From: a virus
Lineage: Duplodnaviria; Caudoviricetes
DNA length: 62,459 nucleotides
IMG/VR virus record: IMGVR_UViG_3300025864_000016
Coordinates: 1-62,459 of that record
Strand: one strand, 5' to 3'
A model generated the notes under the pieces. The model did not search any database and was not told the DNA's origin. It saw nothing but the letters and a program-made list of their open reading frames with translations. Both the position numbers and the translations under genes were made by a program. Shown here one piece after another: positions 13,922 to 61,100 of this stretch (its first letter is position 1; every line of letters starts with the position of its first letter).

Positions 13922-14017
13922 TGTACATGCTTCCCTTAACGTGGTATAATGTATGAAGTTGCCCAGCGCAAATCACTACGCTGGGCGTTATGCAACACCT
14001 AAAAAGGAGGTAGAAGC
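13922..14017 (+). promoter_or_regulatory. Promoter and conserved hairpin leader of HNH-like copy 1
   Basis: TGgTATAAT 13942-13950; stem GCCCAGCG/CGCTGGGC 13961-13986; GTTATGCAACACC; AGGAGG. Confidence 0.8.
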
Positions 14018-14737
14018 ATGAATGGAAGTATAGTCCATATTAACGATGGCGTCAAGTTTACAACAGGGAACATTCCCACTGGCATGAAGTTTGGTAGGAC
14101 TACCGTTATTGAAAAAATACCGAATCCTACCAAAGACAATCATGCATTTTATAGATGTGCCTGTGACTGCGGAAAGATTTATTGTACCGTTGGCAGAGGA
14201 TTGGTCAGTGGCCACACCACATCATGCGGGTGTTATTTTTCCGAACAACTTATAGCGCGCAATACTATACACGGTGAAGGTAGCCAAAAACACGCAAATC
14301 GTGGTTTGTATTGTGTATGGAATAACATGATGAAACGTTGTTACAATACAAAAAATCCTGGGTACTATAATTGGGGCGGCAGAGGCATCACCGTTTGCGA
14401 TGAGTGGAAAGCTGATTATACAGTATTTAGAGACTGGGCATTTGCTAATGGATACAAAAAGCACCTTTCCCTCGACAGAAGAGACAATCTCCTCGGCTAT
14501 AGCCCATCTAATTGTTGGTGGGCAACATCAATACAACAGAATAGGAATACTCGGAAAAATGTCAATGTTACTGCTTTCGGAGAAACAAAATGTATCTCCG
14601 CATGGGTAGCTGACGATTGCTGTAGCGTTGGTCATACAGCAATAAGGAAGAGAATAAAGAAGGGATGGTCTCCCGAAGATGCGATAACAACACCAGCATA
14701 CGGGCGGCGGGCAACATTGACACATACCCCCGCATAG
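14018..14737 (+). CDS. HNH-like homing-endonuclease-family protein, copy 1
   Basis: CDCG, SCGC, RCYN, GGRGITVC.EW, LSLDRRDN..GY.PSNC.WAT, TAFGETK. Confidence 0.85.
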   Translation: MNGSIVHINDGVKFTTGNIPTGMKFGRTTVIEKIPNPTKDNHAFYRCACDCGKIYCTVGRGLVSGHTTSCGCYFSEQLIARNTIHGEGSQKHANRGLYCVWNNMMKRCYNTKNPGYYNWGGRGITVCDEWKADYTVFRDWAFANGYKKHLSLDRRDNLLGYSPSNCWWATSIQQNRNTRKNVNVTAFGETKCISAWVADDCCSVGHTAIRKRIKKGWSPEDAITTPAYGRRATLTHTPA

Positions 14738-15197: not shown

Positions 15198-15229
15198 GGA
15201 TTGATTATTAGAGGTATTGCACGTCGGGG

Positions 15230-28308: not shown

Positions 28309-29000
28309 TTTGCCGCCCTCCCAGTTGGTTTCGTCATCGCTTCTTCCGAATCCATTCCAATCTTTATTCTATAACATAAAGTTTGACTAGTAACGACGCA
28401 CCGTTTATCCTCTACCCACGCAGCGATACACTTCGTTTCACTGAAGGCTGTAATGAGATGGTTATCACTTCTGTTTCTCTGTTGTTGCTTCATTGTGATC
28501 CACCTACAATTATTCGGTTCGTAATTGCCATCGTTGTTTGGGTAACGGTCAAGGGATAAGCCTTTTATGTATCCGTTAGCAAGCGCCCATTTTTTAAAGA
28601 CGGCACGGTCAGTTCTCCACTCGTCACAGACGATGATACCCCTTCCACCATAACGAAAGTAGTTTTTATTGTTTGTGTTGTAGCAACGTTGCATCATATC
28701 TGTCCATACACAACGTAAACGATAATATTCACTACCGAGTAGACTATCTCCATGTGTGGTACTTACTTCACGCTGATAACACCCACATGAAATGGTATGA
28801 CCACTGGCTAATTTCTGGCCTTCTACGCGGTATGTATTACCACAATCGCAGATGACAGTATAGAAATGCCTTATCTGTCCGTTAATTCTTTCGGCCACGT
28901 GCGCCGTGGTTGTTAATCGTCCGAGTTTCATCCCGATAGGAATGGCACACCCACGAACCTTGACGACAGGTGTAACTGTGGTTATAATGTTCATTGTCAA
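28305..29000 (-). CDS. HNH-like protein, copy 4
   Basis: LSLDRYPNNDGNYEPNNCRWIT. Confidence 0.85.
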   Translation of the reverse strand: MTMNIITTVTPVVKVRGCAIPIGMKLGRLTTTAHVAERINGQIRHFYTVICDCGNTYRVEGQKLASGHTISCGCYQREVSTTHGDSLLGSEYYRLRCVWTDMMQRCYNTNNKNYFRYGGRGIIVCDEWRTDRAVFKKWALANGYIKGLSLDRYPNNDGNYEPNNCRWITMKQQQRNRSDNHLITAFSETKCIAAWVEDKRCVVTSQTLCYRIKIGMDSEEAMTKPTGRAAK

Positions 29001-29128
29001 CTCCTCCTTTTAGGTGTTGTCCGGCCTCCAACATTTGGCTATGTGTGGAGGCATTTCTGTAAGTATACCACCTATTAGAATAAAAGTACAGTCCGCATCA
29101 ACTGTCTTTGGCGCTTTTTGTTTTCGCA

Positions 29129-37671: not shown

Positions 37672-37707
37672 AGTATACACCTATTCTACCCGTATGTCAA
37701 GTAAGTA
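37672..37707 (-). promoter_or_regulatory. Strong leftward early promoter
   Basis: TACTTAC-TTGACA-17-TATACT. Confidence 0.8.
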
Positions 37708-37864
37708 AGTAGCAAACAAGTGTACTATTTTTCATGCTTGTTTTTCGCACCCGACAACTCCACAAATTCGCATCATCACCATATAACCAAGTAACTATAT
37801 AACCACATAGTCATACTATACTACTTGTTAATAACTATACCCGTTGTCAAATTTAGGTAACTCA

Positions 37865-40800: not shown

Positions 40801-40836
40801 ATTATACAGATAGCGGATTAGCCTGTCAAGTAAGTA
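40801..40836 (-). promoter_or_regulatory. Strong leftward early promoter
   Basis: TACTTAC-TTGACA-17-TATAAT (perfect consensus). Confidence 0.85.
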
Positions 40837-41448
40837 GTAGGAATATGATGTAGTATTTATCACACAATTGCAAAGTATTTTCCGAGGTAGCAATATGCAA
40901 GGATAAGATCATCATCATCATCATGCTGGTAGCAGGGAATTCACCCCGTCAATTCAACAGATAGGCGCAAAAGGTGTAAATCAAATTGACTCATATGTGA
41001 AAACAAGGCAAAAACACGGCATTGTCAAGCTAATACAGGGATATGACTAGTGGCAGAATAGCACTTGTGGCTTAGAAGGCCTTGCAGGTACCAACAAACG
41101 CATTTCCTGCAGCATGGTAGTGTAACTCATTTTCAACAGGGTAGCATTAACAGGGTATCATATAACGCAGCTGGTAGCTGGTAGCGTAACTCCCGATATC
41201 GCAGGTAGCAGGAGCTGGCAAAGAGCAGTCAAACAGCGGTTTGCATAGCGACGAATAGCAAACAAAGCGACGGCAACGAATACAAACAGACAGACGCGAA
41301 AAGATGTTCGTGAAAAACGGTTTATTTATTAACGATTCGAACGCGCGAAACGAAGTTACCACCTTGCCTAACATTTTTTTCAATTTTTCGCAAAACCAAC
41401 TTTTGTGATAGCACCTATTTGCCTTAAAAATTTTTTTAGATTTTTAAC

Positions 41449-43522: not shown

Positions 43523-43599
43523 GCATCTGTAGCTCAGCCCGGTAGAGCGTCGCGGTGAAAACGCGTAGGTCGCAGGTTCGATTCCTGCTGGATGCACCA
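43523..43599 (+). tRNA. tRNA-Phe (GAA)
   Basis: GCATCTG acceptor, TAGCTCAG..GGTAGAGC D arm, GAA anticodon, GGTTCGATTCC T arm, encoded CCA. Confidence 0.88.
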
Positions 43600-44846: not shown

Positions 44847-45224
44847 ATGGCAAAGAAACTGAAATGTTCCGACGTGTTCGACGTGCCGACCGCAACCGTG
44901 AGACGCGCATTGCAGGATGCACCTGCTGCTAACTACGTTTTCCAAGAGGGTACGCAGATAGAACCGACGACAGCACCTATTATCTCGGTTTATCCGCATA
45001 GCGATTCTATCACCAGCAGTATTCCCATAGGCTCCGCCGTGAACCTTGGGGACTACAAGTGGCCGACGCTGCCGAAGGAAATGCCCGAAGGCGTGACGCG
45101 CAGGGAGATAGAAGTCGTACCAAGCTGGACGGCCATACGAGAAGCTATTGCAAAGATTGACGCCCTCGAAGCCCGTGTGACCGACCTCGAAAGGGCGCAG
45201 AAGGCACACGCGGTATACAAATAG
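44847..45224 (+). CDS. Hypothetical protein
   Basis: Own promoter TTGACA-17-TATTAT at 44797-44825. Confidence 0.6.
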   Translation: MAKKLKCSDVFDVPTATVRRALQDAPAANYVFQEGTQIEPTTAPIISVYPHSDSITSSIPIGSAVNLGDYKWPTLPKEMPEGVTRREIEVVPSWTAIREAIAKIDALEARVTDLERAQKAHAVYK

Positions 45225-45308
45225 GCCAGTATGTGCTATAATAAAATAGAAATGCCCCAGACATCGCGAAATGCCGGGGCGGTATGCAACCTGTAAAGGA
45301 GGAAGCAC
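45214..45308 (+). promoter_or_regulatory. Promoter and conserved hairpin leader of HNH-like copy 5
   Basis: TGcTATAAT 45234-45242; GCCCC...GGGGC 45254-45280; GGTATGCAACC; AGGAGG. Confidence 0.8.
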
Positions 45309-45995
45309 TTGAAAAGTATAACACGAGTCAAAGACGGAGTCAACTACAGCGTCCCAAACATTCCCATTGGAATGAAGTGGGGCAGGCTTACAGTGCAACA
45401 TCATGCACCAGAAAAGGTCAAAGGGCGATTGCGACATTTCTACATTTGCATTTGCGAGTGTGGAAAGACATGTCGTGTGGTCGGGGAATGTTTGATTTCT
45501 GGTCATACGATTTCATGCGGATGTTATCATGACGAAGTAAGGCTTGTTTGCACAACGACGCATGGCGACAGTCGGCCAGGCAGTAAGTACAAAAGACTAT
45601 TTGAGAGCTGGGGGGATATGATCCGGCGCTGCGAAAAAGAAAAGCGTAAGGATTATCACCATTACGGTGGTAGGGGAATTTTTGTCTGTAATGAGTGGAA
45701 AGATTATCAGACATTTAAAGATTGGGCACTGGCTAATGGGTATAATGAAAAACTATCGCTAGATAGAATTAACAACGACCTAGGCTATAGCCCAAGTAAT
45801 TGCAAATATTCAACAGCAAAACAACAGGCTAGAAATAGGCGTAACAATTATTTACTAACCGCTTTCGATGAAACTAAAAGTATCGCAGAGTGGGTAGAAG
45901 ATAGCCGATGTAGTGTAAACTACAGCACTGTACATGCCAGAGCGACAAGGCTCAAATGGCCCCACGAAAAAGCAATTACGGAACCCGGAAGGTAA
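45309..45995 (+). CDS. HNH-like protein, copy 5 (TTG start)
   Basis: LSLDRINNDLGYSPSNCKYST. Confidence 0.85.
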   Translation: MKSITRVKDGVNYSVPNIPIGMKWGRLTVQHHAPEKVKGRLRHFYICICECGKTCRVVGECLISGHTISCGCYHDEVRLVCTTTHGDSRPGSKYKRLFESWGDMIRRCEKEKRKDYHHYGGRGIFVCNEWKDYQTFKDWALANGYNEKLSLDRINNDLGYSPSNCKYSTAKQQARNRRNNYLLTAFDETKSIAEWVEDSRCSVNYSTVHARATRLKWPHEKAITEPGR

Positions 45996-46020
45996 CTAAT
46001 TGCTCTATCATAAAAACCGA

Positions 46021-46051
46021 AAGACTCTCCTGTAAAGGGGGAGTCTTTTTT
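46021..46051 (+). terminator. Cassette terminator
   Basis: AAGACTCTCC...GGGGAGTCTT followed by a T run. Confidence 0.85.
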
Positions 46052-46070
46052 ATACCGCAAAGGTGGCGCG

Positions 46071-47495
46071 ATGCTAAAAAACGTACCAAAGGGAACGCGA
46101 TCCGCCTTCGATGTATGCGTGGCAGATCTGATCAATGACCTCATCATGGAACCCGATAAGGGTTTAGAGCGATACAGGAATGACCCCGTCGGATTCGTGC
46201 GCGAAGTGCTAAATGAAGACCCGTGGGAGAAGCAAGAGGAAGTGTTAGAAGCCGTTAGGGACAATCGACGCGTGACGGTCAGAAGTTGTCACGGGGTGGG
46301 CAAGACAAAATGCGCTTCGTGGGTTGCTTTGTGGTTCTTACTAACACACCCCGATAGCTGCGTGATCAGTACTGCACCGACGTGGCAACAGGTTGAGCAA
46401 CTTTTGTGGAGAGAGATTAGGAATAGTCATGCAAAAAGTAAAATCCCCTTGCCTGGGCAACCATTAACAACAAAGTACGAAATCAATGATAAATGGTTCG
46501 CTTTGGGGCTATCAACAGACAAACCTGAGCGTTTCCAGGGTTTCCATTCTTCCAGTGGAGACATTCTCCTAATCTGCGACGAGGCATCAGGTATTGACCA
46601 AGCCATATATGACGCGGCAGAAGGGTTTCTCGCGAGTGCTGGTGCAAGAATATTGTTAATAGGAAACCCCACACAGATGTCGGGCGAATTTTATTCGAGT
46701 TTTAAAACGTCTATCTATCACAAAATTCATATTTCTGCCTTTGATTCCCCTAATCTTACTCATGGGCAGGTTGTCAGAAAGTACCTCATTACCAAGGAAT
46801 GGGTTGATGAGAAGCGTGTCAAATGGACTGAAGAGTCACCGCTATGGTCGTCAAGGGTACTAGGGGACTTTCCAGAGCAATCAGAAGACACCCTCATACC
46901 TTTGGCGTGGATTGAAGCAGCCATAGCGCGTTACCCAAGTACGGAACGCTCAACCAACGCTCCTTTCCTCGGTTGTGACATAGCCCGGTTTGGTTCAGAC
47001 AGTACCGTTATCTGGTCAGTTTGGGGCAATCGCGCTGAATTGTACGCGCAGATTCGCAAGCAGGACACAATGGAAGTGGCCGGTGCAATCACTAATGCCA
47101 TCAAAGAGACAAGTGCCGCATATGCGAATGTTGACGTGTGCGGGCTTGGGGCTGGTGTTTATGACCGGCTCAAGGAAATGAATCAGCCTGCCATTGACTT
47201 GAACGCGGCGGGCAAGCCTGTTGACACTGAGCGGTTCGTGAATAATAGGGCCGAGTGGTATTGGAACCTGCGAGAGCGCTTCCAATCGGGTGACATTGCA
47301 ATTCCCGACAACGAAGAGCTGGCCGCGCAACTCACTGGCCTAAAGTACAAATTTGATTCACGCGGTAGATACCTCATCGAGAGTAAAGAAGAGATGAAAA
47401 AGCGTGGGATGTCCTCACCCGACCTTGCAGATGCGCTGATGTTGGCGTTCGCTCAGCAGCGTCCCCCGCAAGAAATTGGCGCAATGCTAGTTTAA
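46071..47495 (+). CDS. terL: Terminase large subunit
   Basis: Walker A SCHGVGKT, Walker B LLICDEAS, GNP, nuclease motifs GCDIA and SPDLADA. Confidence 0.95.
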   Translation: MLKNVPKGTRSAFDVCVADLINDLIMEPDKGLERYRNDPVGFVREVLNEDPWEKQEEVLEAVRDNRRVTVRSCHGVGKTKCASWVALWFLLTHPDSCVISTAPTWQQVEQLLWREIRNSHAKSKIPLPGQPLTTKYEINDKWFALGLSTDKPERFQGFHSSSGDILLICDEASGIDQAIYDAAEGFLASAGARILLIGNPTQMSGEFYSSFKTSIYHKIHISAFDSPNLTHGQVVRKYLITKEWVDEKRVKWTEESPLWSSRVLGDFPEQSEDTLIPLAWIEAAIARYPSTERSTNAPFLGCDIARFGSDSTVIWSVWGNRAELYAQIRKQDTMEVAGAITNAIKETSAAYANVDVCGLGAGVYDRLKEMNQPAIDLNAAGKPVDTERFVNNRAEWYWNLRERFQSGDIAIPDNEELAAQLTGLKYKFDSRGRYLIESKEEMKKRGMSSPDLADALMLAFAQQRPPQEIGAMLV

Positions 47496-50019: not shown

Positions 50020-51177
50020 ATGGATGAATTAGTACAAAAGGTAGAGGAGCTTGCTGCTACTACCGCAGAGTTCAAGCGCACAAACGATGAGCGGCTTGCT
50101 ACCATCGAGGCTACGGGCAAAGAGTCTGTCATACAGACTGAAAAACTGGGGGCGATTGAGGCAGAATTGATTCGCCTTGAAGATTCTATCACTAAGCTGA
50201 ATCGCACATCCGCTGGCACTACCGCCGACGCGAAGGACGCGAAGACAGAAGCCTTTTTCGCTGGTATTCGCATGGGGTTGTCCCCGGATATGCCTTCCGA
50301 AATCAAGATGGGGATGACCGTAGCCAACGACACGACTGGTGGCTATCTGGCAAGCCCAGAGTACCTGTCCACAATCATGCGTAACATTAACGAGTACAGC
50401 GATGTGCGCGGCCTTGTTACCGTAAAGCCCACTACGAAAAAGGAAATCTCCTGGCCGACACGCACGCAGGGAACCGTGGCCCGGTTCGTCGGCGAGACTG
50501 AGCTCCGCACAGAGAGCCAGAACCCCCTGTATGGGCGCGATAAGATTCTCACTCGTGAGATGTATGCGATCATCGACGTGTCCAATGAAGACTTGGAAGA
50601 TAGCGATTATGACCTCGAAGGTATGATTCGCGACGAGATCACCGAGAGCTTCACCCTGCTGGAAGGCACGAGTGTTGTGTCCGGCACTGGTATAAACGGA
50701 GCGCCGTTCGGGTTCATGAATGCGGCTGGTATCGCTGAAGTCGTGTCTGGCGCTGCTACCACGATCCCTTCTGCCGACCCGCTTATTTCTTTGATGTACA
50801 ACATCAAAGACGTATATCAGCGCAATGGCGTTTGGGCTTTTAATCGCTCTACGTTGTCTGCTATCCGAAAACTGAAAGACGGGAATAACCAGTATCTGTG
50901 GGCACCGGGCATTGCTGGCGCAATCCCGAATACCATTCTTGACCGTCCGTATATCATTGTGCCGGATATGCCGAGCATTGGCGCTGGTCTGTACCCGGTC
51001 GTGTTCGGCGACCTCAAACGGGGTTACTGGCTAGTGGACCGCACTCAGCTCACCTTCACCCGCGACATCTATACACAGGCAACTTCTGGCTACGTTCGCA
51101 TCCTTGCCCGCAAGCGCATCGGTGGCAACGTGGTTCGCGCAGAGGCCTTTGCTAAACTGAAAATCGCCGCTTCCTAA
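50020..51177 (+). CDS. Major capsid protein (HK97 fold with delta domain)
   Basis: GGYL..PE, GTG...P.G, KLKDGNNQYLW, VVFGD, RIGG.V. Confidence 0.95.
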   Translation: MDELVQKVEELAATTAEFKRTNDERLATIEATGKESVIQTEKLGAIEAELIRLEDSITKLNRTSAGTTADAKDAKTEAFFAGIRMGLSPDMPSEIKMGMTVANDTTGGYLASPEYLSTIMRNINEYSDVRGLVTVKPTTKKEISWPTRTQGTVARFVGETELRTESQNPLYGRDKILTREMYAIIDVSNEDLEDSDYDLEGMIRDEITESFTLLEGTSVVSGTGINGAPFGFMNAAGIAEVVSGAATTIPSADPLISLMYNIKDVYQRNGVWAFNRSTLSAIRKLKDGNNQYLWAPGIAGAIPNTILDRPYIIVPDMPSIGAGLYPVVFGDLKRGYWLVDRTQLTFTRDIYTQATSGYVRILARKRIGGNVVRAEAFAKLKIAAS

Positions 51178-51189
51178 GGAGAGTAAATT

Positions 51190-51639
51190 ATGGCTAACGC
51201 AGGAACACTAATCGACATGAAGAATGTCGATGGCGTTAATATCCAAACAATACAGGATAGCGCCATTTATAATGTGGGCGGGGTTGACTACACGGGGGCG
51301 GCGATTGGTGCGATACTGGCTAATCAATTCCCCGCTGGCGTAACCGCCACCGCAGCGCAAATCAACAAGCTGGCCGCTGTTACCCCCGGTACGGTGGCCG
51401 CAAGCAAGGCGCTTGTCGTTGACGCACAGAAAACGCTCAACGAGCTTACCGTAACAGCACTGACCACGGGGGCTACCGTCACTATCGGGACAATCCCACT
51501 GGTGGCACTCACTGTGGCCGTAACCGCCAATTCCACTACCACGGCCCTCGCCGCAGGAACCTACGCCATTACCAGTAACGCTACTGGACTTGGCAAACTG
51601 TTCTATAGCGACGGTAGCAAGTGGCAGGTGGCCGCCTAG
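51190..51639 (+). CDS. Head fibre/decoration protein
   Basis: GVTATAAQINKL..VTPGT..ASKALVVD. Confidence 0.6.
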   Translation: MANAGTLIDMKNVDGVNIQTIQDSAIYNVGGVDYTGAAIGAILANQFPAGVTATAAQINKLAAVTPGTVAASKALVVDAQKTLNELTVTALTTGATVTIGTIPLVALTVAVTANSTTTALAAGTYAITSNATGLGKLFYSDGSKWQVAA

Positions 51640-51697
51640 TAATCAATACGGGGTGGGGGTAACTCCTCACCCCTTTCGTTCATAAGGAGAAAATAAC

Positions 51698-52135
51698 ATG
51701 CGTGATATTTATCACAACACAGGAGATACAATACTGCTGGAGCCGCAGGACTTGGCCCATACTAATACGTTGTCTGCAATAATTGACACCGTTGGTTTCG
51801 CAGGCGTTGACCTCAAGGTTATCGTTAGTGCGCTGACCGGCGTTGACGGCAGCAACTATCTGACCATTGTCGCTCAAGAGAGCGCCACTACCGCAACGGG
51901 CGCATTCACTACCGTCGCCGCTGGTGACCTACTGGGCGCGTTCACCGTCATTAACAGCACCAGCAAAGATAGCTTGGAGCAGAAAGTCGGATACATCGGC
52001 AACAAGCGGTACGTCCGCATTAGCCTGGTGTACACCGGCACGACTATCAGCGCCGGAGTTGTCGGCGTTATCGCCACCGTCGATAGTGCAAGTACGGCCC
52101 CGGTAACAGCACCAGCCATCACCGCCACCACGTAA
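51698..52135 (+). CDS. Capsid decoration/cement protein
   Basis: IDT.GF, QES, VGYIGNKRYVR. Confidence 0.7.
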   Translation: MRDIYHNTGDTILLEPQDLAHTNTLSAIIDTVGFAGVDLKVIVSALTGVDGSNYLTIVAQESATTATGAFTTVAAGDLLGAFTVINSTSKDSLEQKVGYIGNKRYVRISLVYTGTTISAGVVGVIATVDSASTAPVTAPAITATT

Positions 52136-52190
52136 GGCGAACAGGCAATCCCCGCGTGGTTATGCTGCGCGGGGAGATTAAGGGGGTAAT

Positions 52191-52781
52191 ATGAAACTTA
52201 CGCGAATCAGTGATAGCAGCGTAGAACCTGTGTCCTCCGCGCTAGTAAAGGCCCATCTCGTAGACGTTAATTCAAGCGACGACACACTATTAGCCATGTA
52301 TATCCGGCGGGCAAGAATGGCGCTGGAAGTTTTGTCCCGTTCAGCATTATGCGTGGGAACTGACACTCAAACATGGAAAGCCGTGTTTACATATCAAGAA
52401 TGGTTGGACGCGCAGGACGTCGATGGCACGATCACGCTCGGTTACGGCCCGATGAGTGCAGTAACAAGCATCATAGAAAGACGCAAATCAGCCACTACCA
52501 CAACCGTCAGCACTGATGTATATACCACTGACCCTTCCACAAATAGGATTCTTTTGAAAGATGATCAACTGTGGCCTGATATATCTGGTACGCATACAGA
52601 CTGCCTAGGATTTACAATCACATATACGGCAGTTAATACTGCACTACCGGATTGGGCCGCTGACGGGGTGTGTCGCCTTTGTGGTTATCTTTTTGAGCGT
52701 AGGGGTGATAGTGAGCCTGATAATATATTTGCTGTTGCGGGCCAGCTTGTTCCTGACGCTATTTCGTATGATGATTATTGA
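52191..52781 (+). CDS. Head-tail adaptor (gp6-like)
   Basis: EPVS...VKAHL.D...DD.LL..YI..AR; L..YLFERR. Confidence 0.85.
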   Translation: MKLTRISDSSVEPVSSALVKAHLVDVNSSDDTLLAMYIRRARMALEVLSRSALCVGTDTQTWKAVFTYQEWLDAQDVDGTITLGYGPMSAVTSIIERRKSATTTTVSTDVYTTDPSTNRILLKDDQLWPDISGTHTDCLGFTITYTAVNTALPDWAADGVCRLCGYLFERRGDSEPDNIFAVAGQLVPDAISYDDY

Positions 52782-52876
52782 CAAAACCAGGCGCAACATG
52801 TTATACTACCAAAAGTAATTACCCCGCACAAAATCTGATTGTACGGGGCGTATGAAATACCGATAGGAGGTATTGC
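52778..52876 (+). promoter_or_regulatory. Promoter and conserved hairpin leader of HNH-like copy 6
   Basis: TTGACA-18-TATACT; stem 52822-52848; GTATGAAATACC; AGGAGG. Confidence 0.85.
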
Positions 52877-53575
52877 ATGAGAACTAGTATACAGCGATTC
52901 AAAGATGGCGTCAATTACACGCTAGGCACTATGCCTGCCGGCATGAGATGGGGTAGGGGCACAGTTCAGAACCGTACACCTAGCCCATTTGGCGATCGCA
53001 AACCACGATATTCTTTACTGTGCGATTGTGGAAATATTTATATCGCATTTGGGCGTGATATTGTAAGTGGTCACACAAAATCTTGCGGGTGTTATAAGCA
53101 GGCAATGATTAAAGTCTGGTCGACAAAGCATGGATATAGCTTACCTACTAGTGAATATTATAGGTTGTATAAGTGCTGGATACACATGATTAGCCGCTGT
53201 TACGATATGAATGATTCTGGTTACAACGCTCATGGAGGACGCGGCATCACTGTTTGCAATGAGTGGCGAGATAATCCAGAAGTATTTCAAAGGTGGGCTA
53301 TAAGTAACGGATATTCTGACACCCTAACTCTCGACCGTTACCCTAACAACGACGGCAATTACGAACCTTCAAACTGCCGGTGGGCGACACGTAAGCAGCA
53401 GAATAGAAACACTCGGTCTAATCGCCTTATTATGGCATTTGGCGAGACGAAGTGTATTTCTGCATGGGTAGAAGATTCCCGCTGCGTTGTTTCCTATGCA
53501 ACTTTATGGTACAGACTAAAGAGTGGAATGGATACCGAAGACGCGATGACAAAACCTTCCCGGCGTAGCAAGTAA
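52877..53575 (+). CDS. HNH-like protein, copy 6
   Basis: LTLDRYPNNDGNYEPSNCRWAT. Confidence 0.85.
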   Translation: MRTSIQRFKDGVNYTLGTMPAGMRWGRGTVQNRTPSPFGDRKPRYSLLCDCGNIYIAFGRDIVSGHTKSCGCYKQAMIKVWSTKHGYSLPTSEYYRLYKCWIHMISRCYDMNDSGYNAHGGRGITVCNEWRDNPEVFQRWAISNGYSDTLTLDRYPNNDGNYEPSNCRWATRKQQNRNTRSNRLIMAFGETKCISAWVEDSRCVVSYATLWYRLKSGMDTEDAMTKPSRRSK

Positions 53576-53593
53576 CTACTTCACGATGTAAAA

Positions 53594-53626
53594 AAGAACT
53601 CTCAAATGAATCGGGGGTTCTTTTTT
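53594..53626 (+). terminator. Cassette terminator
   Basis: AAGAACTCTC...GGGGGTTCTT followed by a T run. Confidence 0.8.
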
Positions 53627-53651
53627 GTGCCATCTTTCGAGGATGTGACTT

Positions 53652-54365
53652 ATGGCTTATACACCAATATCATCGGCACAATGCCGCTATACAGCTACCA
53701 TACTCACCCCGACGCTTATTACTAGCCCGGCGACTACCGGACAGGTTACGTGGGGCAACCTCGGCTCAACGCCGACTTGCAGAGTTGCGGTAGCGTGGCC
53801 GTCACTCGCGAGCTTAAATCATATAACCAACGCCGATAACGGAAGTGTTGCCACACTCACAACAAGAAAACGGGCAGACGTTATCGTAGGCCACATGATT
53901 CAAGTGGTCATGGACGCCGTGACCAGAACCTTTGACATTATGGCGATAGTTCCACACCGCGCCGCTGGCTGGATGGAAATAACCGGCAGGGAAGTTACCC
54001 GGCCTTCAATTATGTACACAATGACCGTGCAAAGACAGACCATCGGGAATAGTGCTTTCGGTGACGGCATGGGGGGATTTACTTCCGCATCAGGCACAAG
54101 TGGGTACGCTACTACAGGGGTAACGCTAACAGGAATTCTCAACAGTATCGACGCCACAATCAGATACACGCCCGCAGTTAATGGGCAACTAATCTCGCAC
54201 GAATTTCACATACCTTATCGCAATGACTATAACACTGTTATCACCGCTGCTGACCGGCTGGTCATAGGCACCCGCAGCTTTTATATCGTTGGGATTGATG
54301 ATATGAATGAGCATCACACCGAGATATGCGTCTATCTTAACGAGTTGAAGCAAGCAGGTCAGTGA
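53652..54365 (+). CDS. Head closure (stopper) protein with two tandem gp16-like domains
   Basis: Position in the neck cluster; two repeats of the pattern T.Q....G...W/Y ... R.D..I/V....RT/SF.I..I....E. Confidence 0.7.
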   Translation: MAYTPISSAQCRYTATILTPTLITSPATTGQVTWGNLGSTPTCRVAVAWPSLASLNHITNADNGSVATLTTRKRADVIVGHMIQVVMDAVTRTFDIMAIVPHRAAGWMEITGREVTRPSIMYTMTVQRQTIGNSAFGDGMGGFTSASGTSGYATTGVTLTGILNSIDATIRYTPAVNGQLISHEFHIPYRNDYNTVITAADRLVIGTRSFYIVGIDDMNEHHTEICVYLNELKQAGQ

Positions 54366-54366
54366 T

Positions 54367-54843
54367 ATGCGAGTAATTGGCGTTGACAAACTATCTGGCT
54401 ACTTCGCGAAGAAGCAAGCCGCTATCGAAGAAAAGGTAAAAGAAGCATTGATGCTGCGGGCAAAGGTTATACAGGACAAGGCAAAGTACCTTGCAGCTCC
54501 GCCGCCTAAAGTTTGGAGATTCACTCGCTTACCAACCGGGGGCAGGAGTCGTACCGGACAACCAAATACGCCGGTTCCTTCAACTTCCGATAGCATTGCT
54601 GATATGATAGAGATTATCCCATTAAATGGCGGGCTTACCATTCGCATTGTCAGCAGGCACTGGGTAAGTCTTTGGTTTGAGTTTGGCACGGGTGATACGG
54701 CAAGCACCGGCCCATTTCCGAATCCTCCGCATAATAGGTCATTCAATCGCGGCATGTACGCTTCACCGTTTATGGTTCCTGCGCTAGAAACCTCGCGAAT
54801 GGGCACAATACGGGCGGTTAAAGCCGCACTAGGGGGTAAGTAA
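54367..54843 (+). CDS. HK97 gp10-like neck protein
   Basis: AKYLA, WFEFGT, GMYASPFMVPALE. Confidence 0.85.
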   Translation: MRVIGVDKLSGYFAKKQAAIEEKVKEALMLRAKVIQDKAKYLAAPPPKVWRFTRLPTGGRSRTGQPNTPVPSTSDSIADMIEIIPLNGGLTIRIVSRHWVSLWFEFGTGDTASTGPFPNPPHNRSFNRGMYASPFMVPALETSRMGTIRAVKAALGGK

Positions 54844-55292
54844 TGCCAACAGAAACCGGATTCAGTATTCCGTTTGCTGCAATACAAGCTGGGATTTACA
54901 CGAAACTCAATGCCGCCGTGACTTATGGCGGAGTCGCCGTTCCCGTGTTGAGCAGTCCGCCAATGGAGTTTACGCCAAGGCGCATCGAAATTGGCGAAGA
55001 CACCGCAGATGCCTTCTGGGGCAAGGATTTCAAGGGCTGGTACACGACGACGACTATTCATGTCTGGGACAGCGGTGGTAGCCGCGCACCCGTGTTAAGT
55101 ATCATGGATTCTGTGTCGAAACTACTCACAAAATTCAGTAGCCCAATTTCACTGGGCACGGGATTTTACAACATCGCAACTTTTCCCGGAGCAACGCTTT
55201 GTATCCGCGACAGTTTCGACGAAGTCCTCAAGCTACCCGTATATCACGGAGTTTTGAGACTTAAGCTATATATTCAGCAGGCTACGGCCTAG
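54843..55292 (+). CDS. Tail terminator (DUF3168-like)
   Basis: AIQAGIYTKL, IGED, TIHVW, YHGVLR. Confidence 0.8.
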   Translation: MPTETGFSIPFAAIQAGIYTKLNAAVTYGGVAVPVLSSPPMEFTPRRIEIGEDTADAFWGKDFKGWYTTTTIHVWDSGGSRAPVLSIMDSVSKLLTKFSSPISLGTGFYNIATFPGATLCIRDSFDEVLKLPVYHGVLRLKLYIQQATA

Positions 55293-55310
55293 CACTAAAG
55301 GAGAAAGAAA

Positions 55311-56159
55311 ATGCCAACACCAACACTTGTTGCCGGCAAAAACCTAAACATTGGGCCGCAGACTGCGGGCGTAGTAACGCCATTAAAGTTTTCGCGCGGC
55401 GGTGATATATCTATCACCGGGACTACCTTTGATGGCGCTCACAAGGGCGACCCATCAACCCCGAACTTCGTCGGCTATACCGAATGGAACGCCGCCGTTA
55501 GTGGAGTATTAGACGATACAGCCGCAGAGGTGTCGGGCATCAAATGCACACTCACCCGTGCAGGCGGACTCGTTTTCTGCGGCGACGTCTCCATTGACAT
55601 TAATATGGGGTTCGCCAGTGCGAAGGTTCACGACCTGTATCCCAATACGGTTTTCGCTCCGACGCAGTATACGTGGAGTGCAACAGCAAATACCTTTTGG
55701 ACTTCTGACGGCACCCCTTCAGAACTGACCGCCGAATTGTTGGCGGCATTGGAAGGCACTGATTTCCCCGCCGATGATGGCATAGAGGTGGTTTTCACCA
55801 TTGGTTCTGCCATAACACTGACAGGCAACGGGAAAATTCATTCGTCTAAAACTTCTGGCGGGCACACCGACTTCGTGAAGAACGACTTCTCTATCATCGG
55901 AGATGGCGTGCTTACTCCGGTTATTACTGGAGCTTCACAGTTAGTGGCCGTTCTGACACCATTACTCGCGGGCACAGTTATTGCTATTGGGGTAAACGTT
56001 GGCGGGACAGGGTCTCCACTTACGGGCGGGAATGTCCTGGTTGGCAACAGCTACGGCAAGTCTGTCAAGATCAGTGCTCCAGTCGATGGCATCGCTACCT
56101 TCGACATCGCACTTCAGGGAACTGGGGCACTTGGCCCGTATGTCCCAGTAATACCGTAA
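55311..56159 (+). CDS. Major tail tube protein (internally duplicated)
   Basis: Position; tube-type motifs W.A...G and A..D...TF...LQGTGAL. Confidence 0.8.
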   Translation: MPTPTLVAGKNLNIGPQTAGVVTPLKFSRGGDISITGTTFDGAHKGDPSTPNFVGYTEWNAAVSGVLDDTAAEVSGIKCTLTRAGGLVFCGDVSIDINMGFASAKVHDLYPNTVFAPTQYTWSATANTFWTSDGTPSELTAELLAALEGTDFPADDGIEVVFTIGSAITLTGNGKIHSSKTSGGHTDFVKNDFSIIGDGVLTPVITGASQLVAVLTPLLAGTVIAIGVNVGGTGSPLTGGNVLVGNSYGKSVKISAPVDGIATFDIALQGTGALGPYVPVIP

Positions 56160-56242
56160 TTGTGTGGTAAGTAACCACACAAGCACTGGTGGGGACAATT
56201 CAGTCCCCACCCTACATTTCAGTTTTATAAGGGGGAAATTAG

Positions 56243-56782
56243 ATGGCTAACATAGGCAAAAGAGCAAAGCCAACACTCGCGCCGGTGGCTCCGGTAGAAG
56301 TTCCGCAAGCCGACGTATTCACCACGAATGGTGACGTAGAAGTTTACGTTCCCGGGATGGAACGCACGGGGTACTTCCAGTTAAACGCACGCTCAATCAG
56401 CAACCTCCAGCGCAAGTTTGGTAAGTCGATCAAGGATTTATACGCTGACATTGCGATGAAGGCAGAGGGCGACATTCTTTCTGCTGTCCTTGTGGAAGGC
56501 TTTAACGCCCCGATTGAGCGTGACAAATACAACGCAAGCAAGGGCAGGCCGGGGCCGCTGGCTGACGAAGAGTTATGGACAGAGGACGACGTTCTCTACA
56601 ACATCAATACCAACAACATTGGCTACTTGAGTGAACAGCTCGTGACCGGATTTGGAAAGGCATTCGGGGTGGATATCCCCCAAATATTGCGCCTGCTCTC
56701 CACATTAACGGAGGCGGGCAAGGAGATGGAGACAGCGATGGCGGCGTCTGGAGCAGTACTAGCTGGTATCGACAATATTTAG
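56243..56782 (+). CDS. Tail assembly chaperone
   Basis: Lies between tube and TMP; FQLN..I..LQRKFGK. Confidence 0.7.
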   Translation: MANIGKRAKPTLAPVAPVEVPQADVFTTNGDVEVYVPGMERTGYFQLNARSISNLQRKFGKSIKDLYADIAMKAEGDILSAVLVEGFNAPIERDKYNASKGRPGPLADEELWTEDDVLYNINTNNIGYLSEQLVTGFGKAFGVDIPQILRLLSTLTEAGKEMETAMAASGAVLAGIDNI

Positions 56783-57321
56783 TTGCGGGTGGCGACCCCG
56801 ACATTGAAGCCTTCGGGTTCCTAATTCCATGGGAGATATCCGAGTTTGTTGGGGCGTATAGCCTGCGAAAGAATGAGGCGATACTGCTCGAAGATGAGCG
56901 ATTCGCTAGGAGCCTGTGGTACACGTTAAACTGTGGAACTATGGGCATCAGTGAGAAGAGTAGCTGGCTGAAAGTCGAAGACCTGCGCATGTTCAACCGC
57001 GATGGCGACAAGCAGGAAATTGACGAGAAGAAAGTTGCCAAGCCTAAACGCCTGACCCGCAAACAGAAGATAGCGGCAGAGCGTGCGAGACGCAAACAAT
57101 GGGCATCCTTTGCTGTTTCAATACCTTCATTAGCAGAAACACAATCGCGCCTGTACGAAATATCGCAACTGCCGAACACTGACGTTTCCTGCTATGAGAC
57201 ATGGACAGAGTTGAACAAAGAGCGACTGGCAAAAGCGAAACTTAGTGACGCACAACGACTAAAGGCGTTGATAGACGATAAGACCCGCTTGCACAACAAT
57301 CCAGTTTGTGGTATACTATGA
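56635..57321 (+). CDS. Chaperone -1 frameshift extension (GT-like)
   Basis: The -1 frame is open from 56635 to 57321 and overlaps the chaperone; no strong RBS. Confidence 0.6.
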   Translation, partial: TARDRIWKGIRGGYPPNIAPALHINGGGQGDGDSDGGVWSSTSWYRQYLVAGGDPDIEAFGFLIPWEISEFVGAYSLRKNEAILLEDERFARSLWYTLNCGTMGISEKSSWLKVEDLRMFNRDGDKQEIDEKKVAKPKRLTRKQKIAAERARRKQWASFAVSIPSLAETQSRLYEISQLPNTDVSCYETWTELNKERLAKAKLSDAQRLKALIDDKTRLHNNPVCGIL

Positions 57322-57387
57322 ATAGAAAGTGCCCACCGCAAAGACTAATTGCGGTGGGCGTATGAAATACCTAGAAGGAGGTATCGC
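57289..57387 (+). promoter_or_regulatory. Promoter and conserved hairpin leader of HNH-like copy 7
   Basis: TTGCAC-17-TATACT; 11-bp stem 57331-57359; GTATGAAATACC; AGGAGG. Confidence 0.85.
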
Positions 57388-58074
57388 ATGAGACCTAGTA
57401 TAGCACGAGTCAAAGACGGAGTCAACTACACGACGGACAACATGCCCGTAGGTATGGTTTGGAATTGGCTCACAGTCAAAGAGCATGAAGTAGAGAGAAT
57501 CAAGGGACATTTAAGGCATTTCTATATTTGCGTCTGCGAATGTGGAAACATTTGCCGCGTAGAAGGCAATAATTTAATCAGTGGCCATACCAAGTCATGC
57601 GGGTGTTATCGGCGCGAGGTAATTACTACGCACGGCGACCGTGTGGTGGGTAGCGAGTATTTTAGACTGCATCAGTGCTGGGCAGCTATGATGAATCGTT
57701 GCTACAACAAAAACAGTGACAGTTACCATACTCATGGCGGGCGCGGTATTACAGTTTGTGTGGCATGGAGAGATAGCTCGGTATTCAAGGAATGGTCTCT
57801 CGCTAATGGCTATTCGGATAAACTCACCCTTGATAGAGAAAATAACGAAAGTGGCAACTATGAACCATCCAACTGCAGGTGGGCTACAGCGAAGCAACAG
57901 GCGAGGAATCGACGGGATAATCACATGATTACTGCTTTCGGAGAAACCAAGTGTATCGCTGAATGGGCTGAAGACGTCCGCTGCGTTGTTGCTGCTGGCA
58001 CTTTGCGTATGAGACTAAAGCGCGGCATGGAACCCGAAGAAGCGATGACTAAATATAGCAGGCAGAGCAAATAG
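57388..58074 (+). CDS. HNH-like protein, copy 7
   Basis: LTLDRENNESGNYEPSNCRWAT. Confidence 0.85.
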   Translation: MRPSIARVKDGVNYTTDNMPVGMVWNWLTVKEHEVERIKGHLRHFYICVCECGNICRVEGNNLISGHTKSCGCYRREVITTHGDRVVGSEYFRLHQCWAAMMNRCYNKNSDSYHTHGGRGITVCVAWRDSSVFKEWSLANGYSDKLTLDRENNESGNYEPSNCRWATAKQQARNRRDNHMITAFGETKCIAEWAEDVRCVVAAGTLRMRLKRGMEPEEAMTKYSRQSK

Positions 58075-58095
58075 CGATTTCACATCTAAAATATT

Positions 58096-58127
58096 AGAAC
58101 CTCTCATATAATGGGGGGTTCTTTTTT
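58096..58127 (+). terminator. Cassette terminator
   Basis: AGAACCTCTCAT...ATGGGGGGTTCT followed by a T run. Confidence 0.85.
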
Positions 58128-58167
58128 ATGCGGCGCGTTTGCCTCAAAATACCCAAAGGGGGAATTT

Positions 58168-61100
58168 ATGGCTGAAGATGGTATGGACGTAGGAGGCGGA
58201 GGAATTTACGTTGAAATCGGTGCGACCCTCATAAAATTGCAAGAAGACCTCAAAGTTGCCAAAGGAATGGTTGAGAAGTTTGCTGCTGACGTATCTACAG
58301 ACGTAGTAACAATTCGCACTAATCCGGCTATGCTAGAGCAGTTGGAGGCAAAAATTGCCGCGCTCGAAGCGCAGGTAAAGACGCTCTCGGCACAGGTAGT
58401 TACCCCGCAAGTCAACATGGCGGAGTTGACCGCACTTCGCGCCGAGTTTACCGCACTGCAAGCGCAGATGGCCGCGTTGTCGGCAAAACCCGTTGTTATT
58501 GACGTGGTAACAAAGACCACTTCCGTTGGGGCAGGGGCGGCAGTAGTCAGTGGCAAGCCAATGCCACAACCTAGCGCAAAACTTCGCGAGTTGAATGAAT
58601 GGAACTCTAGAGCTATCGCCAATGGTGGCGAAGCAATTTATACAAAAGACAATAGTGCTGTCTATGCAAAAGAGCAAGCAAAGTATGAAGCCGCACTAGC
58701 CAAAAGAGCTGCTGCTGACGAAAGAGCTGCTGCAAAAATAGTAGCGGCACAAGCAAAAGCTGACGCAGCCCTTGATTCTCAATATGCAAAGTGGACAGCA
58801 AAACAAGAAAAATGGGTAGCTCAAAAAGAAGCGGGAGAACAAAAAGTCGCTATTGCATCACAGACCGCTCGTGAAGAAGAAGCCGCTGGGCTTGCTAAAG
58901 TTGAGCAGATGAACGCGCAACTTGAAGCTTCTGATACCGCTCGCATGGAAAAGAGCGTTGCCAATGTCCGTAAACTCGAAGCGGTGCAGGCAGACGCTTT
59001 AGCAAAGCAATTAGCGGCACAGGCCAAACTTGACGCAGCAACAGTTGTCGCTAACGCAAAACTCGCTGCCCGTGTAGAAGCGTTCAATATCCAAAAGGTA
59101 GGCGTCAATGGTGCGCCAATATTTTCAGCAGCAGATGCACCCGCGCTCAATGCGGAAATGGCAAACCTAAAAGAGCAGCAGGCTTTACTTTCTGCACAAC
59201 GCGGTGAGTTAGTAGCGCAGTCAGCGGCATGGAAGGAAATTGACGCCGAAGTAATGGCCGTTGGTGAGCGAATCAAGGCACTTTCGCCCGCGCAAGCATT
59301 TGTTAATGGCCTCGTCAAAGAGCAGTTAGCATTAGAAAAGGCAGTAGCCACCGCAGCTACAGCAAAGACCAAAGAAGGCACTGCCCTCGCTGCTCAAAAC
59401 ATCAGAAATGAAGCGCAAACTTACGCGCAAAACATAACAGGACTGCAGGGCGTTACCCCCGGCGGAGTATTCGCTAACACCTTTACAATTCAGAAGAGCA
59501 TGGTTCTTATGTCTGCGGAGTTGCAGAAGCTCACCATCGACTTGAATAATATGGGTCCGAGTAATGCCGCTTACGAGATGACCAAGGCGAAAATCGACGC
59601 AATTGCTGGCCGTCTTCGGGCACTCCGGCAGGCCGCTGGTGAGATGAAAGCCGCGATGCAGCAGCTCGGAAGCACGTTGCAGGGCATTGGCATGGGCCTT
59701 GTAATGGCCGGTGCTGTAGGCGCAGCAACTATATTCGGCATTGGCAAAATTCAGAGTCACATCGACCAGACAAGGATTTCTCTCGCATCGTTATTCGGCA
59801 GTATGGATGCTGGTCTCGCGTTTATGAAGAAACTACGTGACTTCAGCGAGAATACTCCGTTCAAGTTTGATATTCTATTGAATGGCGCAAAGGAACTGAA
59901 GGCGTTTGGATATTCGGCAGAAGAACTAATCCCGACGATGCAGATAATCGCCGACAAGGTAGCACAGATTGGCGCTGACCCCGAAATGATGCAGCGAGTT
60001 ATCACCATTTTCGGTAAGATTCGCAATGAAGGCAAAATAATGGGGCGCGAGTTGCTACAACTCGAAAAAGCCAATATCCCCGTTATCAAGTACCTGACTG
60101 AATATACCGGCGAATCATGGGAATCGTTATCAAAGCGGATGCGAAACCCGGATATGACAATATCAGCGGACGTGGCCTTGCCCGCGTTTACGCAGGGGAT
60201 GAAGAAGGACTCCAGTGGTGTAGCAAAAGCACAGGAAATGGAATCTCTGTCAGGCAAGCTTTCTAACGCGGCAACTAACTTCCAGATGGCGATCACTAAA
60301 CTCGGCGACGCTATGAAGGGTAATCTGATGAAGATTATCGACTGGGGCGTTAGCGTGCTTCATGCAATCGAAAACCTGTCTCCGGCAACGCAGAAGGCGA
60401 TTGGAGATTTCCTGTTGTTCGGTTCGGCGGGCGCTGTTGTGACCGGCGTACTTGCATTGCTCGCGTCTGGAATTATAAGCATTGATGCTAAATGGGGGCA
60501 GTTCGCAGGGGTACTGGCAAAGATTCCGAATATTGCGGTAGTAGGCCCGATAGTGGCACTCATAGCCGCATTCGTGGGCTTGAGCCTTGCTACCGAGGAT
60601 GGCCGCAAAAACCTGCAAGCTATCGGGGCTAACCTGATGGCCGTCGGCAAAAACTTCATGGACTTCGCGAAGCAAGTCTGGAGTGCCGTAGCGGGTGCCG
60701 GGGGAATCTTACAGCCGGTCATTCAGATGATTGGTGGGTTCCTTAAGTCTATCACCGGATTACTCGCTGCAAACGGAATTGGGGCAACAATACTGGCGTT
60801 TGCTTTATCGTTCAAGGCTTTGTCAGCAGTGTTACCTGTGGTAGTTACCGGCGTGGCCACACTGAGCCGGTCATTATCCGCACTTGGTTTTGGGTTTGCC
60901 TTAATCAAGGCCGAAGCAGTTGCGGCAGCAGCAGGAGCAACAGGGTTTGCGGCAGCAACAAATATAGCTTCCGTATCAGTCGCAGGACTGTCTACAGCAA
61001 TCAAAGCCGCCTTTGCTACAAATCCGTTGGGGTGGATTATTTTAGGATTATCCGCTGTTGTCGCTGGTACTATGGCATGGAATAATGCTAATGAGTACGC

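Follow-up and report, generated by a model that had tools for sequence, protein, structure and literature searches.

A repeated HNH-like gene cassette in a phage genome and its candidate bidirectional control region

The phage record IMGVR_UViG_3300025864_000016 (Duplodnaviria; Caudoviricetes), 62,459 nucleotides (nt) long and analysed in full (the window), carries a family of HNH-like open reading frames (ORFs), several of which follow the same structured leader. What this leader does, and on which strand, is the question that the locus raises. A first-pass annotation, made without database searches, described promoter, hairpin leader, ORF and terminator as one mobile or duplicating cassette, and proposed that the leader could be an autoregulatory RNA bound by the protein, a small partner RNA, or a DNA hairpin end of the IS200/IS605 kind. 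The small partner RNA comes closest, since a promoter on the opposite strand, within the ORF, would transcribe the complement of the leader. The IS200/IS605 hairpin has been set aside.

Searches with tblastn and across the genome find seven paralogous ORFs of 228–239 amino acids (aa), here c1 to c7. The other copies are 48–56% identical to c6, and pairwise identities range from 47 to 59%. Five copies (c1, c4, c5, c6 and c7) have the common leader, which is absent from c2 and c3. On present evidence we favour, with modest confidence, the reading that these five cassettes are autonomous, insulated expression units where an antisense RNA, together with a translational hairpin, would restrain a putative nuclease.

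A promoter-like site facing out of the ORF

Opposite codons 3–13 of c1, c4, c5, c6 and c7, the complementary strand reads TTGAC(G/T), 17 nt, TATA(C/A)T. This candidate reverse promoter has both hexamers (10–11 of 12 positions) and points back through the start codon, the Shine–Dalgarno (SD) sequence and the second leader hairpin (H2) into the first (H1).

52886..52914, minus strand: c6 reverse promoter, codons 4–13; TTGACG, 17 nt, TATACT
57397..57425, minus strand: c7 reverse promoter; TTGACT, 17 nt, TGCTATACT (extended −10)
45315–45343, minus strand: c5 reverse promoter, by sequence pattern
14027–14055, minus strand: c1 reverse promoter, by sequence pattern
28960–28988, plus strand: c4 reverse promoter, TTGACG-17-TATAAT

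The strict pattern TTGAC-N18-TATAMT occurs seven times on the two strands of the genome against 0.08 expected, a count that none of 100 shuffles reaches, and five of the seven sites lie at the equivalent position in these five copies. Each of the other two stands just ahead of a small early gene that has an SD sequence and a start codon, indicating that the phage does use this promoter type. These two sites (37672–37712 and 40801–40841, minus strand) have a common upstream word, ACTTACTTGACA, with an ACTTAC motif, and are likely the phage's main early promoters.

Across the five cassette sites the hexamers are far better conserved than what lies between them: 110 of 120 hexamer comparisons are identical (92%), against 93 of 170 (55%) in the 17-nt spacer, whose length is fixed. 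In the pairs that involve c4 the figures are 42/48 and 27/68. The N-terminal peptide of c4, MNIITTVTPVVKV, departs from the M..SI.R.KDGVN of the others, yet both hexamers are kept, and its single −10 difference gives the consensus TATAAT. The codons beneath the hexamers are not those that the genome favours: AGT is used in 5/5 cases, ATA in 6/6 and GTC in 6/7, with genome-wide usages of 0.17, 0.27 and 0.18, respectively. Where two copies encode the same residue, the codon is identical in 74 of 109 comparisons within the first 16 codons (68%) versus 999 of 2255 elsewhere (44%), and with all seven copies included this segment ranks first of 58. Outside the five, c2 has a weaker reverse-promoter-like site, TTAACG-17-TATACT (9/12; ~17559–17587, plus strand).

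An antisense promoter-like site matching at least 10 of 12 positions between −10 and +90 is absent from all 156 viral and metagenome homologues and all 72 homologues from genomes, compared with its presence in five of the seven copies here. The N-terminal extension of about 14 residues that holds the promoter is missing from most relatives, which start ~14 residues later, suggesting that the segment is an addition of this lineage. A DNA pattern of the N-terminus with both hexamers has no match in viral contigs. A pattern of SD, start codon and reverse promoter matches 77 viral loci, which by a rough estimate is close to the chance expectation; none encodes this ORF family, and one weak match sits on the opposite strand.

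As a separate observation, c5 and c7, which are 58% identical as proteins, differ at one position over the 33 nt of 45315–45347 and 57397–57429. This near-identity over the reverse promoter and the next codons could reflect recent gene conversion or very strong constraint.

The leader and its two hairpins

The common leader consists of an extended −10 box (TGnTATAnT), ~10 nt, a GC-closed hairpin (H1), a ..TATG../..ACC.. segment, AGGAGG and the start codon. The first-pass annotation had placed this layout at c1, c5, c6 and c7, where it is indeed present; a fifth leader, that of c4 (29070 down to 28994, minus strand), had been missed. The sequence TGNTATAMT occurs 12 times in the genome (3.7 expected; 0/100 shuffles reach 12), and five of these are the leader promoters. 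A good −35 box is missing from four of the five sense promoters. H1 starts 9–13 nt past the sense −10 box and therefore leaves only ~3–6 unpaired nt at the 5' end of the mRNA. The sense and reverse −10 boxes face each other with 72–79 base pairs (bp) between them.

52778..52807, plus strand: c6 sense promoter; TTGACA at 52778–52783, 18-nt spacer, extended −10 TGTTATACT at 52799–52807
57290..57317, plus strand: c7 sense promoter; weak −35 TGCACA, extended −10 TGGTATACT at 57309–57317
52821..52849, minus strand: c6 H1; 11 bp with two G.U pairs on the antisense strand (−18.2 kcal/mol), 9 bp with mismatches on the sense strand (−11.7)
57331..57359, minus strand: c7 H1; 11 bp on either strand, antisense tail ACTTTCTATT
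52851..52879, plus strand: c6 H2; UAUG/AAUACC paired with GGUAUU/CAUG, sequestering the SD AGGAGG (52865–52870) and the start codon (52877–52879)
57361..57390, plus strand: c7 H2; SD (57376–57381) and start codon sequestered
45214..45343, plus strand: c5 control region; extended −10 at 45234–45242, H1 at 45254–45280, SD at 45297–45302, TTG start at 45309
13942..14055, plus strand: c1 control region; extended −10 at 13942–13950, H1 at 13961–13986, SD at 14005–14010, ATG at 14018
28960..29070, minus strand: c4 control region; extended −10 at 29070–29062, H1 at 29052–29024, ATG at 28994

H2 had been overlooked, and the earlier view that the leader hairpin leaves the ribosome-binding site (RBS) free does not survive its discovery. 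It folds in 5/5 leaders and pairs part of the SD sequence in every one. The start codon is included in c1, c6 and c7; in c5 the helix reaches the bases just 5' of the start, and in c4 it ends short of the preferred ATG. Free energies (dG) of 43-nt segments spanning H2 are −5.9 to −10.5 kcal/mol. The conserved word GTATG(A/C)AA..ACC is the 5' strand of this helix, and the SD sequence is the 3' strand. The possibility of a short upstream ORF that begins at the conserved TATG was rejected: its length is 9, 4 and 7 codons in c7, c6 and c1, respectively, it runs into another frame in c5, there is no ATG for it in c4, and an SD of its own is missing.

The H1 stem varies among copies while its shape is kept. 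The c6 and c7 stems differ by three compensatory double changes, as the first-pass annotation had noted, and also by two one-sided changes that give G.U pairs on the antisense strand only. In an alignment of c7, c6, c1 and c4 all cells are paired (100%) and 6 of 11 pairs change on both sides, compared with 35–46% of cells paired in slid controls. This alignment covers four related sequences and was fitted to the structure with a model as guide, since MAFFT/RNAalifold without such a guide failed to align the stems of the five antisense sequences correctly, and the consensus was poor. Because the leaders are paralogues and the alignment is model-fitted, the changes are evidence of a conserved shape and not independent events.

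Covariance models of the kind that the annotation had called for recover the remaining leaders. With c6 and c7 as its only input, a model finds c1 (E 3.9e-6) and c4 (3.3e-4), and one built from c6, c7, c1 and c4 finds c5 (E 9.1e-5) and nothing further at full length below E 0.3 in the window. Against 239 homologue loci, covariance model R2 has no credible match; the best, at E 0.24, lies within an ORF. The leaders match no Rfam family: at gathering scores the whole window yields a tRNA only, and in E-value mode 52700–58200 yields no leader match, the single match (E 3.8) falling on the c6 terminator.

H1 is also markedly asymmetric between strands. On the antisense strand it forms 11 bp in 5/5 copies, with six G.U pairs in all and dG of −14.6 to −21.6 kcal/mol; the sense strand forms 8, 11, 9, 9 and 11 bp with no G.U pair and dG of −10.4 to −20.7. 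The antisense G.U positions are C.A mismatches on the sense strand, where c1, c5 and c6 lose 5–6.5 kcal/mol. The sense terminators downstream of the ORFs mirror this: their G.U pairs number six on the sense strand against one on the antisense strand. Within 10 nt after H1 there are 3, 5, 7, 6 and 6 T residues on the antisense strand versus 3, 0, 2, 3 and 3 on the sense strand. On the minus strand, the H1 elements of c6 and c7 are marked as resembling terminators. The annotation had raised the possibility that the motif acts only as a minus-strand terminator. The asymmetry does point to the minus (antisense) strand, but there H1 would be a hairpin that closes a dedicated antisense RNA at its 3' end and not an accidental terminator.

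The reverse −10 box ends 3–6 nt from the start codon, so that the predicted antisense RNA has its first nucleotide at the start codon or just before it and covers the SD sequence. The reverse promoter thus probably makes a cis-antisense RNA of ~64–69 nt, complementary to the whole 5' untranslated region (UTR). For c6 and c7 its ends are estimated from promoter geometry and the H1 tail as follows.

52810..52878, minus strand: c6 predicted cis-antisense RNA, ~68 nt
57320..57389, minus strand: c7 predicted cis-antisense RNA, ~69 nt

Proposed antisense control and its alternatives

In the mechanism that we propose, both promoters would be used by a host sigma-70-type polymerase. The host-type extended −10 promoter would start the mRNA 3–6 nt before H1, and the reverse promoter would be the stronger one because it has both hexamers. 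The antisense RNA would pair with the mRNA around the SD sequence and block translation, H1 would serve as stem-loop and weak terminator at its 3' end, and convergent transcription would depress the sense promoter as well. H2 would act as a constant additional translational brake, and the terminators of c5, c6 and c7 would stop cassette transcripts from entering the terminase, tail and tape-measure genes. Nuclease synthesis would in this way be kept low, so that phage and host are unharmed and adjacent late genes are not driven.

A more specific and more tentative proposal, which we hold as somewhat short of probable, is that the ~150-bp bidirectional control region is a portable safety catch in the style of a type I toxin–antitoxin system and forms part of a mobile unit. 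The copy-specific antisense RNA would come from a reverse promoter written into the added N-terminal peptide, and its terminator hairpin would double as the 5' hairpin of the mRNA. As control moves with the gene, a cassette could land among essential late genes silent and insulated, which would explain the presence of seven copies.

Several points weigh against antisense control. The hexamers overlap the most conserved N-terminal residues (S-I and V-N/K), so that selection on protein and on promoter is not fully separable, and with the five module copies alone the excess of synonymous-site identity in the first 16 codons ranks third of 58 windows instead of first. In the AlphaFold model the N-terminal extension contains short beta strands, with a predicted local distance difference test score (pLDDT) of ~75. 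As paralogues within a single genome, the five cassettes do not provide independent observations of their common features. Recognition by a sigma-70-type polymerase is an assumption. Judged by its tail H1 is a weak terminator, with interrupted U tracts and, in c1, only 3 U in 10 nt. A terminator score of the d'Aubenton-Carafa type is negative for all five H1 elements, although it also fails one of three obvious sense terminators and carries little weight. An arginine replaces the HNH catalytic histidine in 7/7 copies, so that a toxic nuclease in need of tight control is putative. Promoter use, RNA ends and regulation are all predictions from sequence.

Stem-loops of the ompA type, which follow a few unpaired nt, are known 5' stabilisers of mRNA, and the ~3–6 unpaired nt before H1 reproduce their geometry. 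A reasonable alternative is therefore that the leader works in the sense mRNA only, with H1 as a 5' stabiliser and H2 as a brake, and that the opposite-strand promoter is a by-product of common ancestry and a conserved N-terminal peptide, yielding no functional RNA. H2 pairs the SD and start codon much as the hairpins of I-TevI, segB and mobE do in a T4 review, which also places a seg43(25) hairpin just upstream of the RBS (PMC2988022), and the coincidence of the hexamers with conserved S-I and V-N/K residues would then be a matter of protein. This reading is nevertheless unlikely: all six H1 G.U pairs fall on the antisense strand and the sense mismatches weaken c1, c5 and c6 by 5–6.5 kcal/mol, the hexamers persist in c4 under a different peptide, the site occurs in 0/228 homologues, most of which are without the peptide altogether, and the strict pattern is found elsewhere only at the two early promoters. 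Less probable again is a reverse promoter that acts by transcription alone, with collision or dislodgement of polymerases that come from the weaker sense promoter and from late read-through insulating the ORF, and the short RNA having no pairing role. Facing promoters with 72–79 bp between their −10 boxes suit such interference, as does the pairing of a reverse promoter that has both hexamers with sense promoters of which 4/5 are without a good −35, and convergent EcoRI promoters are described as inhibiting each other (PMC3874152). An antisense-specific, 11-bp H1 with compensatory changes, and an antisense start at the start codon with SD coverage, would be left unexplained.

It is improbable that the two-hairpin leader is an operator, as RNA or DNA, for the protein of its own cassette, each copy reading its own H1. 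Stems that vary among copies while keeping their shape are what cognate recognition predicts, the modelled N-terminal barrel resembles Tudor, SH3 and KOW domains, and I-TevI autorepresses at sites resembling its target, according to the same T4 review (PMC2988022). The covariation is free, however, with only three outer pairs constant, which argues for shape over sequence-specific contacts, and the DNA on which I-TevI autorepression acts resembles its homing site. The rejected IS200/IS605-type reading, with H1 as the DNA hairpin end of a transposon-like unit, seems to us hardly credible. A unit repeated in the genome with a hairpin of conserved shape near its 5' edge fits it, but there is no HUH/Y1 transposase or TnpB, the sole ORF being HNH-like; the hairpin is at the 5' end only, the 3' end being formed by an RNA terminator that has sense-strand G.U pairs as well as a T run; and c2 and c3 persist without a hairpin. 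The flanks contain no target duplications: left and right have no common word longer than 5–6 nt, and flanks compared with one another match over 11 nt at best.

Antisense control from within a coding region, the reading preferred here, has partial parallels. Reverse promoters are described for symE/symR, EcoRI and Eco29kI, yielding antisense RNAs that cover the SD (PMC3874152, PMC4147584). In symE/symR, a type I toxin–antitoxin locus of E. coli, a reverse promoter in the 5' coding region makes a short antisense RNA whose 5' part blocks translation (PMC3874152, PMC4147584). The likeness lies in a reverse promoter within the 5' coding region of a nuclease-like gene, in its geometry (here with the reverse −10 ending 3–6 nt from the start codon) and in an RNA that covers the SD and start, here by prediction; the difference is that SymE is an AbrB-fold protein under LexA control, whereas the present ORF is HNH-like, is without LexA control, and occurs five times in a phage. 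In EcoRI and Eco29kI, internal promoters face and depress the forward promoter, with antisense RNA over the 5' end of the gene (PMC3874152). Both have promoters within an endonuclease gene opposing the forward one, as proposed here, but those systems have a methylase partner, while the phage cassette has no modification partner; the termination sites of several of their RNAs are also undefined, where a dedicated closing hairpin is predicted here.

Among mobile elements, IS10 makes RNA-OUT, a ~70-nt stem-loop RNA complementary to the RBS region, from an outward promoter located within the 5' end of the transposase gene. This resembles the phage cassette in that a promoter in the element's own gene supplies an RBS-complementary RNA. 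It differs in that the gene is a transposase and RNA-OUT is a trans inhibitor acting in multicopy inhibition, whereas the H1 sequences of the phage are copy-specific.

The restraint of selfish nucleases is known mainly from T4, where it relies on phage timing and on RBS hairpins combined with late promoters. The T4 review describes RBS hairpins in I-TevI, segB and mobE, cassettes with their own promoters and terminators, autorepression, and the seg43(25) hairpin upstream of the RBS (PMC2988022). As here, the nuclease genes stand free among essential phage genes and have RBS-sequestering hairpins, and some carry their own promoters and terminators. In T4, however, the hairpin contains the late promoter, and late transcripts thereby avoid occlusion; in the phage cassette the sole sense promoter is upstream of H1 and of both H2 strands. 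The review (PMC2988022) describes no dedicated reverse promoter. Cyanophage S-PM2 has CfrI, an antisense RNA of ~225 nt opposite a homing endonuclease gene (PMC2984593). It too is a phage antisense RNA opposite such a gene, but it links the endonuclease gene to psbA and is not a compact 5'-UTR unit repeated with the gene. In the literature searched, which left most subscription journals outside its reach, no reverse promoter or dedicated antisense RNA is described in phage homing-endonuclease cassettes.

If antisense control holds, a cassette-borne antisense brake would be a different and portable solution to nuclease harm, linking homing-endonuclease biology to type I toxin–antitoxin systems and to restriction-gene regulation. 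A coding segment, the added N-terminal peptide, may then exist mainly to house a promoter of the opposite strand, and the ~150-bp module would offer a natural, compact expression element of the 'tight-off' kind. Should the reverse promoter be silent, the locus reduces to a homing-endonuclease cassette of the ordinary sort, well insulated and with two hairpins in its leader.

The ORF family and its setting in the phage genome

The seven ORFs are located as follows.

14018–14737, plus strand: c1 HNH-like ORF, 239 aa; without a T-run terminator
16877–17596, minus strand: c2 HNH-like ORF; leader and H1 absent
20221–20922, minus strand: c3 HNH-like ORF; hairpins and reverse promoter absent
28305–28994, minus strand: c4 HNH-like ORF; divergent N-terminal peptide, promoter hexamers retained
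45309–45995, plus strand: c5 HNH-like ORF, 228 aa; directly upstream of the large terminase gene
52877–53575, plus strand: c6 HNH-like ORF, 232 aa
57388–58074, plus strand: c7 HNH-like ORF, 228 aa

Against 45 relatives the seven ORFs form one group in a quick tree (Shimodaira–Hasegawa-like approximate likelihood ratio test, SH-aLRT, 94), in which c1 and c5 fall outside a group of c2, c3, c4, c6 and c7 (SH-aLRT 86); the midpoint root is for drawing only. Because c1 and c5 bear the leader and branch outside the group that holds c2 and c3, the leader is probably ancestral and was co-inherited with the ORF, and c2 and c3 have the look of copies from which the module has disappeared. The promoter of c3 differs (TTGACA-17-TAGAAT), and the stop codon of c4 abuts the next gene in an early operon without a terminator. 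The cassette as a self-contained unit duplicated within this genome is supported by these data. Of the earlier proposal of a mobile or duplicating unit, duplication within the genome (one group, SH-aLRT 94) thus stands, and the DNA-hairpin ends do not, there being no target duplications.

Among the matches listed, the closest relatives elsewhere are 43–48% identical and come from viral and metagenome contigs and from genomes. The setting of the family is that of a selfish element: the copies are intergenic and multiple, lying between conserved genes (next to that for the large terminase; between those for tail chaperone and tape measure), and some relatives sit beside introns. A group I intron lies immediately upstream of the ORF in 3 of 10 scanned homologue loci (RF00028, 81–94 bits), which fits a homing-type family. 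These introns, at L001:178–507, L059:129–429 and L060:47–333, end ~50–60 nt before the start of the homologous ORF. Two distant homologues have an int-alpA RNA motif upstream (RF02996; 53.7 and 58.8 bits; L010:490–555 and L034:456–523), ~20–25 nt ahead of their start codons, and the leaders of L028, L061 and L068 look similar by eye. Structured leaders of various kinds seem to accompany this ORF family.

Whether the protein is an HNH nuclease receives a mixed answer. The PHROGs HNH endonuclease families match strongly (phrog_374, E 2e-54; phrog_3377, E 1e-44), while Pfam has no family at E ≤0.01 and NCBIfam none at E ≤1. A profile of the seven ORFs aligns weakly with the HNH motif of I-HmuI (1u3e; E 0.3). 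In this alignment the catalytic D-H of I-HmuI is matched to D-R, and the first H of the motif has no counterpart. D153 and R154 are invariant in 7/7 copies (codons at 53333–53338 in c6), and among 160 related loci 105 have DR, 19 have ER, one has another pair and 35 could not be parsed, so that (D/E)-R is present in 124 of the 125 parsed. The family may either cut DNA through another residue or not consist of nucleases.

The AlphaFold model has a pLDDT of 92 and a predicted template modelling score of 0.63. Foldseek against the Protein Data Bank (PDB) returns nothing at E ≤0.001, with I-HmuI 34th at E 1.6. The best VIA-align match is the HNH restriction enzyme PacI (Z 6.0, root-mean-square deviation 3.8, 84 residues; model residues 80–179), a score that falls within the range of chance arrangements. 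The N-terminal Tudor/SH3/KOW-like barrel of the model gives Z 4–5 to many such domains. HNH-like is a fair label for this putative nuclease.

The homologous terminators that the first-pass annotation reported after c5, c6 and c7 are all found.

53595..53633, plus strand: c6 sense terminator; stem with two sense-strand G.U pairs, then a T run
58096..58128, plus strand: c7 sense terminator; homologous to those of c5 and c6
46020..46052, plus strand: c5 sense terminator; homologous to those of c6 and c7

Strong terminators thus stand within the late gene string (46020–46070, 53595–53651 and 58096–58110), where they directly precede the large terminase, a head–tail gene and the tape-measure gene, respectively. 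No promoter is evident between the c5, c6 and c7 terminators and the next gene, so late transcription must read through them and would be terminator-resistant or the terminators leaky.

The record has direct terminal repeats and is a whole virus record, with a siphovirus-type gene order by PHROGs annotation.

46071–47495, plus strand: large terminase
50020–51177, plus strand: major head protein
from 58111 and across the record ends, plus strand: tape measure
9625–10143, plus strand: endolysin

The plus-strand structural and lysis module also contains the portal, tail terminator and major tail protein genes. A replication and recombination module on the minus strand (~15000 to 41000) has a DnaB-like helicase, a RecT/RecE-like pair and a single-stranded DNA-binding protein. 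A tRNA gene (61.4 bits; 43523–43596, plus strand) lies just ahead of the structural module.

Close relatives of the phage were not found among the matches listed: megablast of 51000–59500 against phage records gives 0 matches, and a search of viral contigs with the major capsid (head) protein gives one locus, at 30% identity. The record sequence is contained in three DNA sequencing runs labelled peat metagenome, and the run search lists no RNA run that contains it. The empty alleles that the annotation had hoped for were seen neither in relatives nor in the run contigs, which span all three late-region cassettes with no joint that skips one. Runs X1 and X2 also contain short low-depth contigs ~80–90% like the head genes (50279–50525, 51980–52268 and others), indicating a diverged relative of the phage in the same runs, too fragmentary at the cassette sites.

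Two further hairpins lie outside the cassettes. An 11-bp GC hairpin at 15170–15200, where the plus- and minus-strand modules converge, is a weak match to the leader model (E 0.35–0.45); the rest of the layout is absent, and it is probably an inter-module terminator. An orphan extended −10, TGGTATAAT, occurs at 2016–2008 (minus strand) in an intergenic gap of the plus-strand tail module, followed after ~14 nt by a 9-bp GC hairpin (~1993–1962). This minus-strand element (1962–2016) has the promoter-then-hairpin start of a cassette with no ORF behind it, and could be a small RNA or the terminator of the plus-strand gene ending at 1945.

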